IMG/VR virus record: IMGVR_UViG_2693429700_000016
Strand: one strand, 5' to 3'
Source of the DNA: a virus
Lineage: Duplodnaviria; Heunggongvirae; Uroviricota; Caudoviricetes
DNA: 6,193 bases
This document shows positions 1 to 6,193 of the stretch, piece by piece; within the stretch, counting starts at the first letter, position 1; each line of letters begins with the position of its first letter. The notes below the pieces were generated by a model, which was not told the origin of the DNA, did not search any database, and worked only from the letters and a program-made list of their open reading frames with translations. A program made the position numbers and the translations under genes.

Positions 1-79
1 CATATTCATCCTGACTTTCCAGAACCATACGAATCGCCCGCTGACGGACTTCGGGGGAAAAACGAGTATTTTTAGTCAT
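1..79 (-). CDS. IS3-family transposase OrfA, N-terminal fragment (continues past window edge)
   Basis: Own translation of minus strand from ATG 79-77 gives MTKNTRFSPEVRQRAIRMVLESQDEY with no stop to position 1. Candidate ribosome-binding site AGAGG upstream (revcomp of ~87-91). Confidence 0.8.
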   Translation of the reverse strand, partial: MTKNTRFSPEVRQRAIRMVLESQDEY

Positions 80-108
80 CCTGTTTACCTCTTTCTCAGG
101 GAGTTTAG

Positions 109-133
109 TCTCCAGGATTTCCGGGGCGGTTCA
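109..133 (-). repeat. IS terminal inverted repeat (IRL-like)
   Basis: TGAACCGCCCCGG..TCCTGGAGA shares a 13-nt identical terminus and the TCCTGGAGA block with the opposite-polarity copy at 6070-6094. Confidence 0.75.
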
Positions 134-140
134 GGCTGGT

Positions 141-572
141 GTGATTCTGCTGGGCTTTATGCGTCGGGAGTTAAATCTGTCTAACTCATCTGTGCTTGGG
201 GCCTGTCAGAAACTCCAGGAGGCTGTTGGCTTACCGAATCTGGCACCGCGCTATGCCATTGATGCTCCTGCTGACGCGCCTGATGGCTCAAGCCGCCCCA
301 CGCTGTCACTGAGTGCACTGCTGAAGCAGTATGGTATCTGCCTGACAGCTAATCAGGCATATCACCAGATGGCGAAGCTGGGGATCGTTGAACAACGCGA
401 ACGATACAGCCGTACCGCGATTAACAACATCAAAAAATTCTGGTCGCTGACGGCGAAAGGCTGCATGTTCGGCAAGAACATCACCAGTCCTGCAAATCCG
501 CGCGAGACGCAGCCGCATTTCTTCGAATCCCGATTCCCTGAGCTGTTAAAGCTGCTCGATACCGTTCATTGA
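141..572 (+). CDS. Hypothetical phage protein, probably 5'-truncated by the IS insertion (possibly the C-terminal part of a larger regulator; function not recognised)
   Basis: ORF with GTG at 141 (next ATG at 159), only 8 nt from the IS terminus. In-frame upstream sequence is IS DNA. Stop TGA 570-572 overlaps the start region of the next gene, suggesting coupling. GC-rich coding composition. Confidence 0.5.
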   Translation: MILLGFMRRELNLSNSSVLGACQKLQEAVGLPNLAPRYAIDAPADAPDGSSRPTLSLSALLKQYGICLTANQAYHQMAKLGIVEQRERYSRTAINNIKKFWSLTAKGCMFGKNITSPANPRETQPHFFESRFPELLKLLDTVH

Positions 573-573
573 G

Positions 574-1569
574 GTGACCGTGAGAGCACTACTGACCCCT
601 GAAATTGCCCCGCGTATGGGGATCGTATTGTTCAGGCCAGGTTCAGAGCTGATGCCCCTGTTTATGCAGGGGCGTGTCCTGCTGGAGCCTGAGCCGGAAC
701 GTTACTCATCTTTCGCCAGTGGTGCCGTTCCGGCGGCATCACAACCGCTGGCGGATGATCCTGCCGTTCGGGCCGTGTTCCGCAATGAGGCAGTGATCCG
801 TCGTGCTGGTGGCGTGGAATGTCTTGAAAGCTGGTTACTTCGTGAAAAAGGCTGCCAGTGGCCTCATTCCGACTGGCACAGCGAGAACATGACCACAATG
901 CGACACGCTCCGGGCGCAATCCGTCTGTGCTGGCACTGCGATAACCAGCTGCGCGATCAGTTCACGGAATGGCTGGAATCAATGGCAACGGATAACTGTG
1001 CCCGCTGGGTGTTGTCTGTTGTGCGTCGGGATCTCGGTTTTGATGACAGTCACGTTGTGACAATGCCGGAACTGTGCTGGTGGTTGATTCGTAATGATCT
1101 GGCGGATGCCTTACCGGAAAGTGCAGCCCGTAAGGCACTGAGATTACCGAAGCCTGTTGTGCCATCTGTCACCCGGGAAAGTGACCTTGTGCCTTCGGTT
1201 CCTGCCACCAGCATCATCCAGGATAAAGCGAAAAAGGTGCTGGCGCTGAAAGTGGATCCGGAGTCGCCGGAGTCTTTTATGTTACGCCCAAAACGTCGCC
1301 GCTGGGTTAATGAAAAGTACACGCGCTGGGTTAAGACGCAACCGTGTGCATGTTGTGGAAAGCCTGCTGATGATCCCCACCACCTGATAGGCCACGGTCA
1401 GGGTGGAATGGGTACAAAAGCGCATGATCTCTTTGTGTTGCCTTTGTGCAGAAAGCATCACGACGAGCTGCATGCGGATACCGTGGCATTTGAAGAGAAG
1501 TATGGCTCCCAGCTGGAGCTGATATTTCGTTTTATCGATCGTGCGCTGGCAATTGGCGTGCTGGCCTGA
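574..1569 (+). CDS. DUF968-like prophage protein with C-terminal HNH-like Cys/His motif
   Basis: 331-aa ORF. C-terminus has C-x2-C-G ... D-P-H-H ... P-L-C-R-K-H-H-x-E-L-H spacing typical of HNH/zinc-finger nucleases. Position immediately upstream of Q is typical of DUF968 genes (ydfU-like) in E. coli prophages. Start is GTG at 574 or GTG at 580 (GAGG at 571-574). Confidence 0.7.
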   Translation: MTVRALLTPEIAPRMGIVLFRPGSELMPLFMQGRVLLEPEPERYSSFASGAVPAASQPLADDPAVRAVFRNEAVIRRAGGVECLESWLLREKGCQWPHSDWHSENMTTMRHAPGAIRLCWHCDNQLRDQFTEWLESMATDNCARWVLSVVRRDLGFDDSHVVTMPELCWWLIRNDLADALPESAARKALRLPKPVVPSVTRESDLVPSVPATSIIQDKAKKVLALKVDPESPESFMLRPKRRRWVNEKYTRWVKTQPCACCGKPADDPHHLIGHGQGGMGTKAHDLFVLPLCRKHHDELHADTVAFEEKYGSQLELIFRFIDRALAIGVLA

Positions 1570-1587
1570 TTTTTGTGGAGTAAGTTG

Positions 1588-1932
1588 ATGCGTGATATGT
1601 ATGAAGTATTGGACCGCTGGGGAGCATGGGCTGCAGCAGACAACAGTGGTGTGGACTGGCAGCCGGTAGCAGCAGGCTTCAAGGGGCTTTTACCTCATGG
1701 CAAAAAGTCACGGATTCAGTGTGATGATGACGAAGGCATTATGATAGACAGTTGTGTGGCTCGGTTGAGAAGGTATAAACCAGAGGAATATGAGCTCATC
1801 ATAGCCCACTTTGTTATTGGTATCTCATTACGCACTATTGCCAAAAAGAGAAGGTGCTCTGATGGCACTATTAGGAAGGAGTTGCAAACCGCAATCGGTT
1901 TTATAGAGGGGGTTGTAAGTATACTTGTGTAA
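1588..1932 (+). CDS. Q: Late-gene antitermination protein Q (short quuD-like family)
   Basis: N-terminus MRDMYEVLDRWGAWAA...AAGFKGLL...CDDDEG...CSDG resembles DLP12 QuuD-type Q proteins from memory. GGAG at 1577-1580 precedes ATG 1588; the ORF track's TTG at 1573 is less likely. Stop TAA 1930-1932. Confidence 0.8.
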   Translation: MRDMYEVLDRWGAWAAADNSGVDWQPVAAGFKGLLPHGKKSRIQCDDDEGIMIDSCVARLRRYKPEEYELIIAHFVIGISLRTIAKKRRCSDGTIRKELQTAIGFIEGVVSILV

Positions 1933-1940
1933 AATAATAA

Positions 1941-1959
1941 AAGGCGGTAGTACCGCCTT
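1941..1959. terminator. Perfect hairpin (AAGGCGGTA / TACCGCCTT) between convergent Q and cassette; likely intrinsic terminator for the minus-strand cassette
   Basis: Inverted repeat 1941-1949 / 1951-1959. On the minus strand it is followed by a U-rich tract (revcomp of 1929-1940 = TTTTATTATTTT). The plus-strand downstream tract is not U-rich. Overlaps the stop codon (1958-1960) of the last cassette gene. Confidence 0.55.
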
Positions 1960-2572
1960 AATGATCGAATCGTTGTATGTTTTCATGGAATCTACAAAAG
2001 TGAATAGATATTTTGAATAGTAAAATGTAGAAACCAACTTGACTTAAAGTTATGGCTTTGCATTTATCATTCAAGAGTTTTTGTAATTCTTCCGTTGGTA
2101 ATTGGTATACATCATCAAGAAAAACGATGCATTCTTCTAAGTTGTCTGATTCAGGAAGATAAAAAATATTAGTAATTAACTGCTTCCTTATAGCATCAAT
2201 TTTGCTATCTATTGAAGTCTTAGAAACTCCGTTGGAGAGAAGAATAGCTTCGAACTTAGATAAACTTACTAACGGAGCAAAGACTGCACGCATTGGCACA
2301 TCACGATTATTACTTGTATCTATATCGCAACTGTTGCTTAATATAATTCCTCGTGTTTTTTTAGTCCCTTTAATTGAATATACTGTAAGCTCCTTAAATA
2401 TATCTCCCTGAAGTGCAGCATTTTTCAGATCATCATGATAATTGGTAAGGTAGTAGTTAGTGTTTTCAGGGAAATCTCTAAGTGCATTTATTAGCCCTTC
2501 TTTTTGAGGAGCTGTTAAATAATATGGGATTTGATCTTTGAATTTCTCGATATCAAAAATGTTATTACTCAT
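1958..2572 (-). CDS. Cassette gene C: hypothetical protein (~204 aa), no recognisable motif
   Basis: Long ORF in strongly AT-rich DNA. ATG at 2572-2570 (alternative GTG at 2575-2573) lies directly after the TAA stop (2578-2576) of gene B, suggesting translational coupling. Ends at the terminator hairpin. Confidence 0.7.
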   Translation of the reverse strand: MSNNIFDIEKFKDQIPYYLTAPQKEGLINALRDFPENTNYYLTNYHDDLKNAALQGDIFKELTVYSIKGTKKTRGIILSNSCDIDTSNNRDVPMRAVFAPLVSLSKFEAILLSNGVSKTSIDSKIDAIRKQLITNIFYLPESDNLEECIVFLDDVYQLPTEELQKLLNDKCKAITLSQVGFYILLFKISIHFCRFHENIQRFDH

Positions 2573-2575
2573 CAC

Positions 2576-2920
2576 TTAATCCAAGTATAAATCCCACAGT
2601 GAAGCATGAACGACTTTATTTATTTCACTGCCTAAAGACACCTGGTTTGTTGATAATTTTTCATAAAAGTTTGTCATCGAGACTGCAAGTCTTTGATCAA
2701 CTGAGATTGTGCTCCCTGCTTTATATGTTTGTGTGATGGAATGAACTGAATCGGTAGTTGAAGACTTATACTCCAAAGCGTGATTTTTGACGATTAAACT
2801 TTGTTGAGGACCATGCTGTTGATTTTGGGCAATGTCTGTTAATGCTGTTATATGCAGACCATATAAAACCAAAGTTAATACTTGAAGTTGAGCTCGATAA
2901 ACATGATGAGACGGATACAT
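2576..2920 (-). CDS. Cassette gene B: small hypothetical protein (114 aa) with hydrophobic N-proximal segment
   Basis: ATG at 2920-2918 preceded on the minus strand by GGTGGT about 7 nt upstream (revcomp of 2921-2935 = AAATGGTGGTATGAT). Residues ~10-30 (AQLQVLTLVLYGLHITALTDIA) are hydrophobic. Stop abuts the start of gene C. Confidence 0.6.
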   Translation of the reverse strand: MYPSHHVYRAQLQVLTLVLYGLHITALTDIAQNQQHGPQQSLIVKNHALEYKSSTTDSVHSITQTYKAGSTISVDQRLAVSMTNFYEKLSTNQVSLGSEINKVVHASLWDLYLD

Positions 2921-2935
2921 ATCATACCACCATTT

Positions 2936-3685
2936 CTATTTGTAGGATGGTTCTAGTTCTTGAATTGTTGACTCTTTAAGGCAACTAAAGAAAGCTAATT
3001 TATTACAGGAGTGAAGATCATCAAGAATTTTTTTGGGTTCGTTTTTAAACTTATCTATTTCATCAGTATTAGTGATTTGCCTAATACTGTCTATGTCTAG
3101 GATTAGTCCTTTTTTATTAAATTCTCCATTATCTGACATGACTAAAGCATGAGATAATATTTGAATTATATTTAGAAATGCGCCTTCATTTTTATCGATT
3201 CTGATATTGATCGGATAATTAGACATAGACTCGCCAGCCATATTTAAGCTGACGTTTAGCTTATCAAATAAATTAGAATCGTCTTCTTTTGGGAAAAAAT
3301 CTACATACTTTAATGAGTAGCGGATGATGTTGTCATTTAAATTTAATTTGTTAAGCTCATTTAATACATGAATGATTTTTTCTCTAAAATGACTCCACCC
3401 TTGATATTTGGTGCTGGTGGATACAACAACACCATGGTCACTTAGTCCAATATAGTACCCTTCGATTTCGAGGCGACTGACAACTGCGTAATGTAATTGT
3501 TCATCTCCCTCACGAACATTTTTAGGTATTTGACTGGGTGGTAAACTAATTACTGGTTTTGTACAACCTAGAGCGTGAAAAAGAAACCCTGGAACTATTT
3601 CCGATATTTGTGTTTCTTTAGAAAAACGCATTTCGAAAGCAGCTTCGATTACTGGTTGTTTTGATAGAGATGTTGGAATGAGCAT
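2936..3685 (-). CDS. Cassette gene A: hypothetical protein (249 aa); N-terminal P-V-I-E-A-A-F-E-M-R-F motif resembles TIGR04255-type proteins of unknown function (recognition from memory, unverified)
   Basis: 750-nt ORF, AT-rich codon usage, ATG at 3685-3683, stop TAG 2938-2936 is 15 nt upstream of gene B start. The motif PVIEAAFEMRF plus later IIRYSLKYVDFF and GLILDIDSI blocks fit my memory of that family. Confidence 0.7.
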   Translation of the reverse strand: MLIPTSLSKQPVIEAAFEMRFSKETQISEIVPGFLFHALGCTKPVISLPPSQIPKNVREGDEQLHYAVVSRLEIEGYYIGLSDHGVVVSTSTKYQGWSHFREKIIHVLNELNKLNLNDNIIRYSLKYVDFFPKEDDSNLFDKLNVSLNMAGESMSNYPINIRIDKNEGAFLNIIQILSHALVMSDNGEFNKKGLILDIDSIRQITNTDEIDKFKNEPKKILDDLHSCNKLAFFSCLKESTIQELEPSYK

Positions 3686-3912
3686 TTAAAACCCATAGTA
3701 TGTTTTATGAGCTGATTGGATTTTGAGCATAGCTACCGCACGAATCTTCGAGGAAGATCCAAACATGTGCCTAATGTCGCATCATGCTCAAGGCGGCATA
3801 AATTTTGTTTACTGAGTATAAGATTAACAACCATTAACTTCCATCAAAAATGCTAACGCGTACGCAAAAACTATTGTATCGTGTTAAGAGTGGTCACTTC
3901 GCCACACAGCTT
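3686..3912. promoter_or_regulatory. Divergent control region: expected site of the cassette promoter (minus) and possibly the phage late promoter/qut (plus); exact elements not resolved
   Basis: Non-coding, compositionally intermediate stretch between the cassette start and the lysis leader. Only weak sigma70-like hexamers found by eye, e.g. TTAACA 3824-3829 with AAAAAT 3846-3851. Positional inference only. Confidence 0.3.
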
Positions 3913-3942
3913 AAACCCGCCGTCGAGCGGGTTTGTCGTTTC
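3913..3942 (+). terminator. Hairpin AAACCCGC-CGTCGA-GCGGGTTT followed by GTCGTTTCT: candidate tR'-like intrinsic terminator or late-leader structure upstream of S
   Basis: 8-bp GC-rich stem (3913-3920 / 3927-3934) with 6-nt loop and U-rich tail on the plus strand. Flanking GGTCACTTCG (3892-3901) recalls the lambda pR'-tR' leader from memory. Confidence 0.4.
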
Positions 3943-4085
3943 TGGACCCGGCTATTTGTTGAGCCTGGTCTATACCGCAGTTATCCATTGGCTCGGCCTC
4001 TTTTACGTTTCCGCTTCTGATTTGCGGTACATGATGTTCCCTCAATTTGCACCTCCTGTATTGGCGAGGTGAGAGATAACTACAA

Positions 4086-4412
4086 ATGCCTCATAACCCA
4101 AATACCTGGCTGGAGTTGGTCCAGAGCTGGTGGCGTGGAGACACACCGCTGGGCGCAGTGATTATGTCGATTGTTATGGCTGGTTTACGTATTGCCTATT
4201 TTGGCGGTGGTGGCGGCTGGAAGCGAAAAACACTCGAAATTCTACTCTGTGGTGCTCTGACGCTGACTTTTGCATCCGCTCTTGAGTATGTCGGATGGCC
4301 TAAATCACTATCTGTTGCCATTGGTGGTGGGGTGGGGCTGATCGGTGTCGATGCTATTCGTGGGGCTGCAATGCGAGTAATCGGTAACAAATTTGGTGGC
4401 TCTAAGGAGTAA
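4086..4412 (+). CDS. S: Holin (class I, lambda S-like three-TMD architecture, but a divergent allele)
   Basis: 108 aa. Three hydrophobic segments (about residues 22-39, 49-69, 75-91). Shares the LR..Y.GG...K and IG.D.I pattern with lambda S from memory. Immediately upstream of R; stop TAA 4410-4412. Confidence 0.8.
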   Translation: MPHNPNTWLELVQSWWRGDTPLGAVIMSIVMAGLRIAYFGGGGGWKRKTLEILLCGALTLTFASALEYVGWPKSLSVAIGGGVGLIGVDAIRGAAMRVIGNKFGGSKE

Positions 4413-4415
4413 TTT

Positions 4416-4892
4416 ATGCAGGTACTAAATTCCCAGCGTAAAGCTTTCCTCGATATGGTGGCTTGGTCAGAAGGAACGGATAACGGACGACAACCGACAC
4501 GTAACCACGGTTATGACGTTATTGTTGGTGGTGAACTCTTCACTGATTACTCCGATCACCCTCGCAAACTTGTCACGCTAAACCCGAAACTCAAGTCAAC
4601 AGCCGCCGGACGTTACCAGCTTCTTTCACGCTGGTGGGATGCTTACCGTAAACAGCTTGGCCTGAAAGATTTTTCTCCAGAAAGCCAGGACGCTGTAGCT
4701 CTGCAGCAGATTAAAGAGTGTGGCGCTTTACCGATGATTGATCGCGGTGATATTCGTCAGGCAATTGACCGTTGCAGCAATATCTGGGCTTCACTGCCGG
4801 GTGCTGGTTATGGTCAGTTCGAGCATAAGGCTGACAGCCTGATTGCAAAATTCAAAGAAGCAGGCGGAACGGTCAGAGAGATTGAGGTATGA
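4416..4892 (+). CDS. R: Endolysin R (lambda-type lytic transglycosylase)
   Basis: 158 aa. Sequence [81 protein letters not shown]... is near-identical to lambda R as I remember it. AAGGAG at 4404-4409. Confidence 0.95.
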
Positions 4893-5350
4893 GCAGAGTA
4901 ACCGCGATTATCTCCGCTCTGGTTATCTGCATCATCGTCTGCCTGTCATGGGCTGTTAATCATTACCGCGATAACGCCATTACCTACAAAGCCCAGCGCG
5001 ACAAAAATGCCAGAGAACTGAAGCTGGCGAACTCGACAATTACTGACATGCAGGTGCGCCAGCGTGATGTTGCTGCGCTCGATGCAAAATACACGAAGGA
5101 GTTAGCTGATGCGAAAGCTGAAAATGATGCTCTGCGTGATGATGTTGCCGCTGGTCGTCGTCGGTTGCACATCAAAGCAGTCTGTCAGTCAGTGCGTGAA
5201 GCCACCACCGCCTCCGGCGTGGATAATGCAGCCTCCCCCCGACTGGCAGACACCGCTGAACGGGATTATTTCACCCTCAGAGAGAGGCTGATCACTATGC
5301 AAAAACAACTGGAAGGAACCCAGAAGTATATTAATGAGCAGTGCAGATAG
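4889..5350 (+). CDS. Rz: Spanin inner-membrane subunit Rz (i-spanin)
   Basis: 153 aa. ATGA start/stop overlap with R. N-terminal TM segment ([16 protein letters not shown]) then coiled-coil-like region; near-identical to lambda Rz from memory. Confidence 0.95.
5109..5291 (+). CDS. Rz1: Spanin outer-membrane lipoprotein Rz1 (o-spanin), embedded in the +1 frame of Rz
   Basis: 60 aa. Lipobox VVGC and proline-rich [13 protein letters not shown]. Fully nested inside Rz as in lambda. Confidence 0.9.
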
Positions 5351-5381
5351 AGCTGCCCATATCGATGGGCAACTCATGCAA

Positions 5382-5675
5382 TTATTGTGAGCAATACACA
5401 CGCGCTTCCAGCGGAGTATAAATGCCTAAAGTAATAAAACCGAGCAATCCATTTACGAATGTTTGCTGGGTTTCTGTTTTAACAACATTTTCTGCGCCGC
5501 CACAAATTTTGGCTGCATCAACAGTTTTCTCCTGTCCAATTCCCGAAACGAAGAAATGATGGGTGATGGTTTCCTTTGGTGTTACTGCTGTCGGTTTGTT
5601 TCCAACAGTAAACGTCTGTTGAGCACATCCTGTAATAAGCATTGCCAGAGCGGCAGAAAACAACATTTTTTTCAT
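5382..5675 (-). CDS. bor: Bor-family outer-membrane lipoprotein (lambda bor-like)
   Basis: Minus-strand ORF; start chosen at internal ATG 5675-5673 (MKKMLFSAALAMLITGCAQQTFTV...) with AGGA about 8 nt upstream. Lipobox ITGC. Near-identical to lambda Bor from memory. The ORF-track N-terminal extension (5676-5723) is probably not translated. Confidence 0.9.
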   Translation of the reverse strand: MKKMLFSAALAMLITGCAQQTFTVGNKPTAVTPKETITHHFFVSGIGQEKTVDAAKICGGAENVVKTETQQTFVNGLLGFITLGIYTPLEARVYCSQ

Positions 5676-5858
5676 CTTATTATCCTGCATTGTTAAAAAC
5701 GGCAGAATCCTATGTGACAACAATTAAACGATAGTTAAATGGATTGATGAAATTTAAAACTATATAGGTGTACGGTCAGACTATTGGAGGTAGTCAGGAT
5801 TTGAATGTCAGTCTGTTGTCGGCATTCTGGCAATGCAATTTGGATAAAGCGGGGATTA

Positions 5859-5978
5859 AAAAGATAGAGGCGAGCCGGTCAGGTAGAAATGAATCAGGCT
5901 CAAAGTGAAGCGGAAAAGGTCTGTGGCACAAACTGATACAGCCATAATTACAGCCTGATGATTTGTGGAATGAAACAT
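5859..5978 (-). CDS. Small ORF (40 aa, hydrophobic) with strong ribosome-binding site; hypothetical
   Basis: Minus-strand ATG at 5978-5976 preceded by AAGGAGGT with a 5-nt spacer (revcomp of 5979-5995 = AATTAAGGAGGTTCAAC). My translation: MFHSTNHQAVIMAVSVCATDLFRFTLSLIHFYLTGSPLSF, stop at 5859-5861. Below the ORF-track length cutoff. Confidence 0.3.
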
Positions 5979-6069
5979 GTTGAACCTCCTTAATTAATGT
6001 TATTCGAGTGAGGAAGGCATTCTGTCCTTCTATAGTGTCCAGTAAATCAAACAGGAAACTTGTCCAACG

Positions 6070-6094
6070 TGAACCGCCCCGGGTTTCCTGGAGA
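6070..6094 (+). repeat. IS terminal inverted repeat (IRR-like)
   Basis: TGAACCGCCCCGGGTTTCCTGGAGA; partner of 109-133. Confidence 0.75.
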
Positions 6095-6111
6095 GTGTTT
6101 TATCTGTGAAC

Positions 6112-6193
6112 TCAGGCTGCCAGATCATCGTTTCCGATGGAAGCATAATAAGCTTTTTCTGCTTCTGCCGGAGGAGTATGGCCCAGCCTTCCC
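6112..6193 (-). CDS. IS3-family transposase OrfB, C-terminal fragment (partial)
   Basis: Minus-strand frame gives ...GRLGHTPPAEAEKAYYASIGNDDLAA then stop at 6114-6112, about 42 nt inside the IS terminus. The TPPAEAEKAYY tail looks like IS3-family integrase C-termini. Frame choice is my judgement. Confidence 0.5.
   Translation of the reverse strand, partial: GRLGHTPPAEAEKAYYASIGNDDLAA

Follow-up and report, generated by a model that had tools for sequence, protein, structure and literature searches.

Introduction

The closest described counterparts of the locus analysed here are insertions of one insertion sequence (IS), IS629/IS1203, into lambdoid prophages of EHEC/EPEC; two examples are IS629 in the Stx2a phage WGPS2 (AP012537) and IS1203 in the O111:H8 strain 8E. 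In each case a 1310-bp element (0 and 3 mismatches, respectively, to the copies discussed below) lies in a prophage and is accompanied by a 3-bp target duplication. IS1203 is an isoform of IS629 (PMC3271280). The stretch of DNA that we analysed, hereafter called the window, is the complete 6,193-nt viral record IMGVR_UViG_2693429700_000016 (Caudoviricetes), both ends of which lie inside IS629. Unlike the WGPS2 and 8E insertions, it would hold two direct copies 5.9 kb apart in one prophage, of which only the inner 133 and 124 nt are visible.

Two other kinds of system resemble the window in their geometry. The compound transposons Tn10, Tn5 and Tn6330 likewise place two copies of one IS around passenger genes. 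In contrast to these transposons, the unit considered here has no flanking duplication in a closed relative, its passenger genes stand in their native context, its IS copies appear to have separate histories, and it has no second location. The translocatable units of IS26, in which one IS and the adjacent DNA can close into a circle, are similar in formal geometry only: IS629 is an IS3-family element rather than an IS6/IS26 element, its transposition chemistry is different, and there is no sign of a circle.

We argue that the window reflects two separate insertions of IS629/IS1203, of the IS3 family, in the same orientation within one ordinary lambdoid prophage, seen through the breaks of a draft contig; we assign this reading a probability of about 0.85. 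The course of events would be as follows. A resident E. coli prophage would supply a segment of 5,936 bp containing the truncated KilA-N gene, DUF968, Q, a three-gene module, S, R, Rz/Rz1 and iss. One IS629 copy would have inserted into KilA-N, and the other into the centre of a palindrome between iss and the HNH endonuclease and terminase genes. The two ends in the window would then belong to two different chromosomal copies in this strain, and IS-associated deletion may later have removed the outer flank of one or both of them, as in the closed relative.

The two ends of IS629

At the left end of the window, the reverse complement read from position 133 to position 1 opens with TGAACCGCCCCGGAAATCCTGGAGAC, and the ATG at 79 encodes MTKNTRFSPEVRQRAIRMVLESQDEY up to the window edge. 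At the right end, positions 6070-6193 open with TGAACCGCCCCGGGTTTCCTGGAGAG on the plus strand, and the reverse strand closes the OrfB frame with ...GRLGHTPPAEAEKAYYASIGNDDLAA, followed by a stop. Both ends, 133 and 124 nt in length, show 0 mismatches to two 1310-bp copies in the related closed genome NZ_CP148401.1. Those copies agree at all 1310 bp with the element that carries the IS629 annotation in the Stx2 phage AP012537, and they differ at 3 positions from the copy in the O111:H8 strain 8E. Judged on the sequence, 100% identity over 133 and 124 nt is beyond chance. The Prokaryotic Genome Annotation Pipeline labels the NZ_CP148401.1 copies, each 1310 bp long, as ‘IS3-like element IS1203 family’, with a programmed frameshift and an annotated AL1L pseudoknot.

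The tips of the two ends pair as a 31-nt inverted repeat (109-139 against 6064-6094). The terminal repeats are imperfect, with 22 of the first 26 IS positions matching, and both tips read TGAACCGCCCCGG..., in agreement with the 5'-TG ... CA-3' rule. The window itself holds 26 OrfA and 26 OrfB codons, and a programmed frameshift between orfA and orfB is annotated in the full copies of the closed relative. Since both ends lie on the minus strand, they are in direct orientation. The preliminary description of this DNA, made from the window sequence, had recognised IS629-like ends in the same orientation and had delimited the segment between them as 134-6069; all of this holds, the limits being exact to the base, and the copies it expected to be about 1.3 kb long are full-length, 1310-bp elements in the closed relative.

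The window as a draft contig

Positions 1-6193 of the window are identical to the entire record CYAS01000117.1 of assembly GCA_001283645.1, as found by an exact look-up of the truncated KilA-N open reading frame (ORF). The window is a complete contig of a short-read E. coli draft assembly, and its ends therefore mark the points at which the assembler stopped within a repeat. The same two break points occur in about 10 further draft assemblies (the loci that we number L006, L014 and L015, together with duplicates). The contig JADICZ010000107.1, of 6158 nt, extends 109 and 110 nt into the IS, and two trimmed contigs of 5934 and 5929 nt (with several duplicates) start at window position 137 or 141 and stop at 6070 or 6069.

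When the IS end alone is used as the query, IS629 is found at no fewer than 40 places in NZ_CP148401.1, with three full copies no more than 35 kb from the locus. In O157 genomes IS629 is present in 22-25 copies, and prophages hold 62% of these (PMC3271280). Many identical copies kept the assembler from reading through the IS, which is why the contig breaks off after 133 and 124 nt of it, and a contig bounded by both ends of one IS is the expected short-read product of such a repeat.

The same ends lend themselves to another reading, which the preliminary description also put forward, namely a circle of roughly 7.4 kb with a single IS. The segment plus one IS629 would in fact make 7,246 bp, whether it arose in the manner of a translocatable unit or by homologous recombination between direct copies. 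At its two edges the contig shows opposite ends of one and the same IS, equally oriented, as it would if drawn from a circle with a single IS, and two identical 1310-bp direct repeats could recombine. However, the contig ends do not overlap, and IS positions 134-1186 are missing from what is a whole draft contig ending in a repeat. A Pfam scan of the segment found no replication or partition genes. In the closed relative the segment lies on the chromosome, and in L012 (see below) it belongs to a 26.6-kb prophage contig. The inner flanks, ACG (TGT in L006) against GGC, are not the duplication that insertion into a pre-existing circle requires. Furthermore, IS629 moves by the copy-out-paste-in route of the IS3 family, in which the element circularises itself and not the adjacent DNA (bioRxiv 10.1101/2023.06.07.543989). 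We consider the circle highly improbable.

The native prophage

A look-up with the DUF968 protein led to a 26.6-kb contig of GCA_012781475.1 (L012) that has no IS at either site. Across 5936 bp, window 134-6069 differs from this contig by 2 single-nucleotide polymorphisms (SNPs) and no indel. There the KilA-N gene is intact (269 residues) and is preceded by Dam, a LexA-like gene and RusA; beyond iss follow the genes for an HNH endonuclease, terminase, portal, protease and capsid. Because it is colinear with an IS-free prophage, we conclude from the alignment that the segment belongs to a resident lambdoid prophage and keeps the native gene order. Uninterrupted KilA-N copies occur in L002 and L007 as well as in L012.

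The three-gene module between Q and S, which we also call the cassette, was found in 92 closed genomes with an identity of at least 99%. It always occupies the Q-S slot, and in 91 of the 92 genomes it has no IS bracket. The cassette travels with the phage, not with the IS.

With respect to JADICZ010000107.1 the window has 8 SNPs, 6 of which cluster within 266 bp of the DUF968 gene (window 705-970). The clustering suggests a patch of recombination from another prophage copy.

The insertion into the KilA-N gene

The left IS interrupts the KilA-N gene after nt 359 of 798. The remnant is a GTG-started ORF of 143 residues (141-572) that begins 8 nt from the IS tip, and three assemblies list it among their annotated proteins (CTT84597.1, CTZ62659.1 and CTZ64460.1).

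A simple insertion at this site predicts a specific reciprocal product on the far side of the IS: residues 1-125 of KilA-N, including a duplicated GGC, followed by EPPRVSWRVFYL from the right inverted repeat (IRR) of IS629 and then a stop. The tail of this ORF is specific to the IRR in this orientation. The predicted ORF of 137 residues is present exactly in a collection of 15 billion proteins (P0023, from 2 contigs of the European Nucleotide Archive, ENA). As controls, versions with a 0-bp or a 4-bp duplication and three fusions based on other KilA-N alleles were sought in the same collection, and all were absent. Since the exact reciprocal ORF with its GGC is on record, the left IS would have arisen by simple insertion in situ, with GGC as its 3-bp duplication, and not as the end of a transposed block. 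Three-base-pair duplications also accompany simple IS629 insertions at other loci (CAA in L010, ATC in L004), and duplications of 3-4 bp have been reported at 21 of 47 IS629 sites (PMC3271280).

Exact-pattern scans for the left junction gave 0 matches in the Joint Genome Institute (JGI) metagenomes and in the GTDB genomes. One closed-genome candidate for this junction, H51, was rejected, its IS lying some 400 bp away.

The insertion downstream of iss

The right IS splits the centre of a perfect palindrome with a 9-bp stem, TTGTCCAAC-GT-GTTGGACAA, between iss and the HNH/terminase genes; the uninterrupted palindrome is seen, for example, at 8201-8220 of L003. This intergenic region has been a repeated target, as O157 genomes have another IS629 some 260 bp beyond the site. 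In one contig with an intact KilA-N gene (L013, 8437-8483, GCA_012607335.1), assembly stops 4 nt beyond the right insertion site, in the uninterrupted sequence ...GTGTTGGA; this break coincides with the palindrome, and there is no IS there.

At the right junction itself (6067-6071, with a caret marking the boundary) the window reads CCAACG^TGAACC, whereas both L001 and L006 read CCAACGTGT^TGAACC. The window thus does not have the TGT, which is bounded by TG microhomology, beside an intact IS tip; the missing TGT is either a small deletion at the junction or an assembly error. An exact-pattern scan of the JGI metagenomes for the window's right junction gave 0 matches.

The locus L006 combines the left junction of the window with the right junction of the closed relative. 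The right insertion is therefore shared, and it is probably the older one. The differing left junctions, at 134 in the window and at 1256 in the relative, are on this comparison separate later events.

The locus in a closed relative

NZ_CP148401.1 is represented by two loci, L001 (spanning 1-22941) and L011, in the region 4,159,446-4,205,000. Here window 1256-6069 is found with 1 SNP, on the chromosome, between two full-length direct IS629 copies of 1310 bp, both on the minus strand (L001 7691-9000 and 13818-15127). The relative therefore bears out what the preliminary description gave as its first option, a segment lying between two direct IS copies. It resembles the window in the fragment it carries, in the right insertion site and in the direct IS copies. 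It differs in its left IS, which lies in DUF968 (1256) and not in KilA-N (134), in the extra TGT at the right junction, and in that no target duplications are present. The iss-bearing fragment and a chromosomal tsh autotransporter gene share an island riddled with IS elements, which has the fim/nan region on one side and the locus of enterocyte effacement (LEE) on the other.

On the outer side of its left IS the relative has a truncated yfdR-like gene, and on the inner side DUF968, entered at window position 1256; the right IS abuts a truncated IS3 beside the LEE. A homologue search with the yfdR-like fragment yielded no protein specific to that junction. Compared with the intact prophage of L002, the immunity and replication regions have been removed, and no structural or immunity genes remain. 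None of the three IS629 copies within 35 kb has a duplication (CAC/ATC, TGT/AGA and GTC/AAC). These observations favour the view that the window, too, is what survives of IS-associated deletions, in which one or both copies lost the original outer flank and only a 5.9-kb remnant of the prophage was left. This possibility is a special case of the two-insertion reading and not a competitor to it, and we give it even odds. IS629-associated deletions are documented (PMC9943667; bioRxiv 10.1101/2023.06.07.543989), the right junction is common to L001 and L006, and the NCBI isolates have no recorded counterpart of the reciprocal KilA-N fragment, although an absent protein record is negative evidence and as such only a weak hint. 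On the other side, the left junction of the window differs from that of L001, so that their histories have diverged, and two ENA contigs do contain the reciprocal junction. The earlier suggestion that the rest of the prophage may be gone is accordingly correct for the closed relative, with its lost structural and immunity regions; for the window's own strain it is about as likely as not.

The relative also bears on whether IS629, segment and IS629 form a compound transposon that moved as one block to its present location and brought iss, the lysis genes and the cassette with it. Two direct copies of an active IS do flank passenger genes, and transposition from the outer ends of a pair of copies is possible in principle for elements of the IS3 family. 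But the outer flanks of the unit in the relative are CAC and AGA, with no target duplication, and both outer junctions are unique there: neither recurs in 5,426 genomes. The passenger, moreover, is within 2 SNPs of a native prophage, with each IS at a site of its own; the left IS has its own reciprocal junction with the GGC duplication; and the cassette, always in the Q-S slot, is IS-free in 91 of 92 closed genomes. A compound transposon thus seems to us very unlikely, and the description of the cassette as IS-mobilisable finds no support in its native context, in the closed genomes or in the relative's outer flanks. The companion claim, that the block is IS-deletable, stands in principle only: any identical 1310-bp direct pair could recombine, so the inference is a generic one, and no single-IS deletion product was found in the 5,426 genomes.

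Gene content of the segment

The features of the window are collected in Table 1. The segment follows the lambdoid late and lysis order Q - PR'/tR' - S - R - Rz/Rz1 - bor, as judged from Pfam, PHROGs and consensus sites, and the same order is found in the intact prophages L002 and L012. The three genes of the cassette have a GC content of 0.30-0.36; the TIGR04255 match has an E-value of 2.6e-27, the PHROGs families concerned are of unknown function, and neither PADLOC nor Pfam gave a match. A hydrophobic ORF of 40 residues, with no family assignment, lies between iss and the right junction (window 5856-5978, minus strand) and is called as a gene in L006 (5832-5954). An Rfam scan of the window matched no family.

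Table 1. Features of the 6,193-nt window, with the basis for each assignment.
Feature	Position	Strand	Basis and remarks
Left IS629/IS1203 end	1..133	-	left inverted repeat (IRL) tip at 133; OrfA start codon 79-77; 26 OrfA codons to contig edge; 0 mismatches
3' part of KilA-N family gene (439 nt)	134..572	+	matches positions 129-269 of the 273-position phrog_129
DUF968 / HNH-like protein gene	580..1569	+	Pfam PF06147, 1.1e-81
Antiterminator Q gene	1588..1932	+	Pfam PF06530, 1.2e-44
AT-rich three-gene module (cassette), function unassigned	1958..3685	-	proteins of 204, 114 and 249 residues, the last a TIGR04255 protein
PR'-like promoter (3824-3851) and tR'-like terminator (3912-3935)	3824..3935	+	upstream of lysis genes; consensus scan only
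Holin S	4086-4412	+	Pfam PF05106 / PF03245 cited for the lysis block
Endolysin	4416-4892	+	phrog_90
Rz	4889-5350	+	Pfam PF05106 / PF03245 cited for the lysis block
Rz1, embedded in Rz	5109-5291	+	predicted ORF; PF06085 at the corresponding place in L012
iss/bor lipoprotein gene	5382..5675	-	Pfam Lambda_Bor, 6.4e-31; Iss WP_000738423.1 annotated at the same place in L001 and L003
Left half of target palindrome TTGTCCAAC-GT-GTTGGACAA	6052..6069	.	junction comparison; uninterrupted in L003, L012 and L013
Right IS629/IS1203 end	6070..6193	-	IRR tip at 6070; OrfB stop 6115-6113; last 26 sense codons 6116-6193 to contig edge; 0 mismatches

Discussion

Several observations weigh against two separate insertions in one prophage and should be set beside the evidence for them. 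The window, taken by itself, is also compatible with a single IS on a circle. The reciprocal KilA-N ORF comes from ENA contigs without accessions, and not from the NCBI isolates that carry the ORF of 143 residues. In addition, end-truncated KilA-N fragments of 117-127 residues, which were sought as a sign of the reciprocal contig, are not on record, and the left junction occurs in no closed E. coli genome that was searched.

Simple insertions into an otherwise intact prophage would leave contigs ending in ...GACAAGATGCAGGC^TGAACCGCCCCGGGTTT, and contigs beginning with ...GGGGCGGTTCA / ...CCGGGGCGGTTCA^(TGT)TGGACAAGCCTCTCC. It would be a different matter if the block were an active compound transposon, or a circle excised by recombination, that moves iss and the three-gene module between replicons independently of the phage; we see little prospect of this.

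Both IS629 in prophages and draft contigs bounded by an IS are routine, and in this sense the finding matters little. Its practical lesson is that a contig ending in both ends of one IS is not to be taken for a circle. The three-gene module is the one element of the window that remains unexplained, and it lies outside the IS finding. The kind of event is already known, namely the erosion of a prophage by IS629 insertions, and the locus adds an example of such erosion next to the LEE, in which a series of decay can be traced from the intact prophage through the form with IS629 in KilA-N to the form with IS629 in DUF968.

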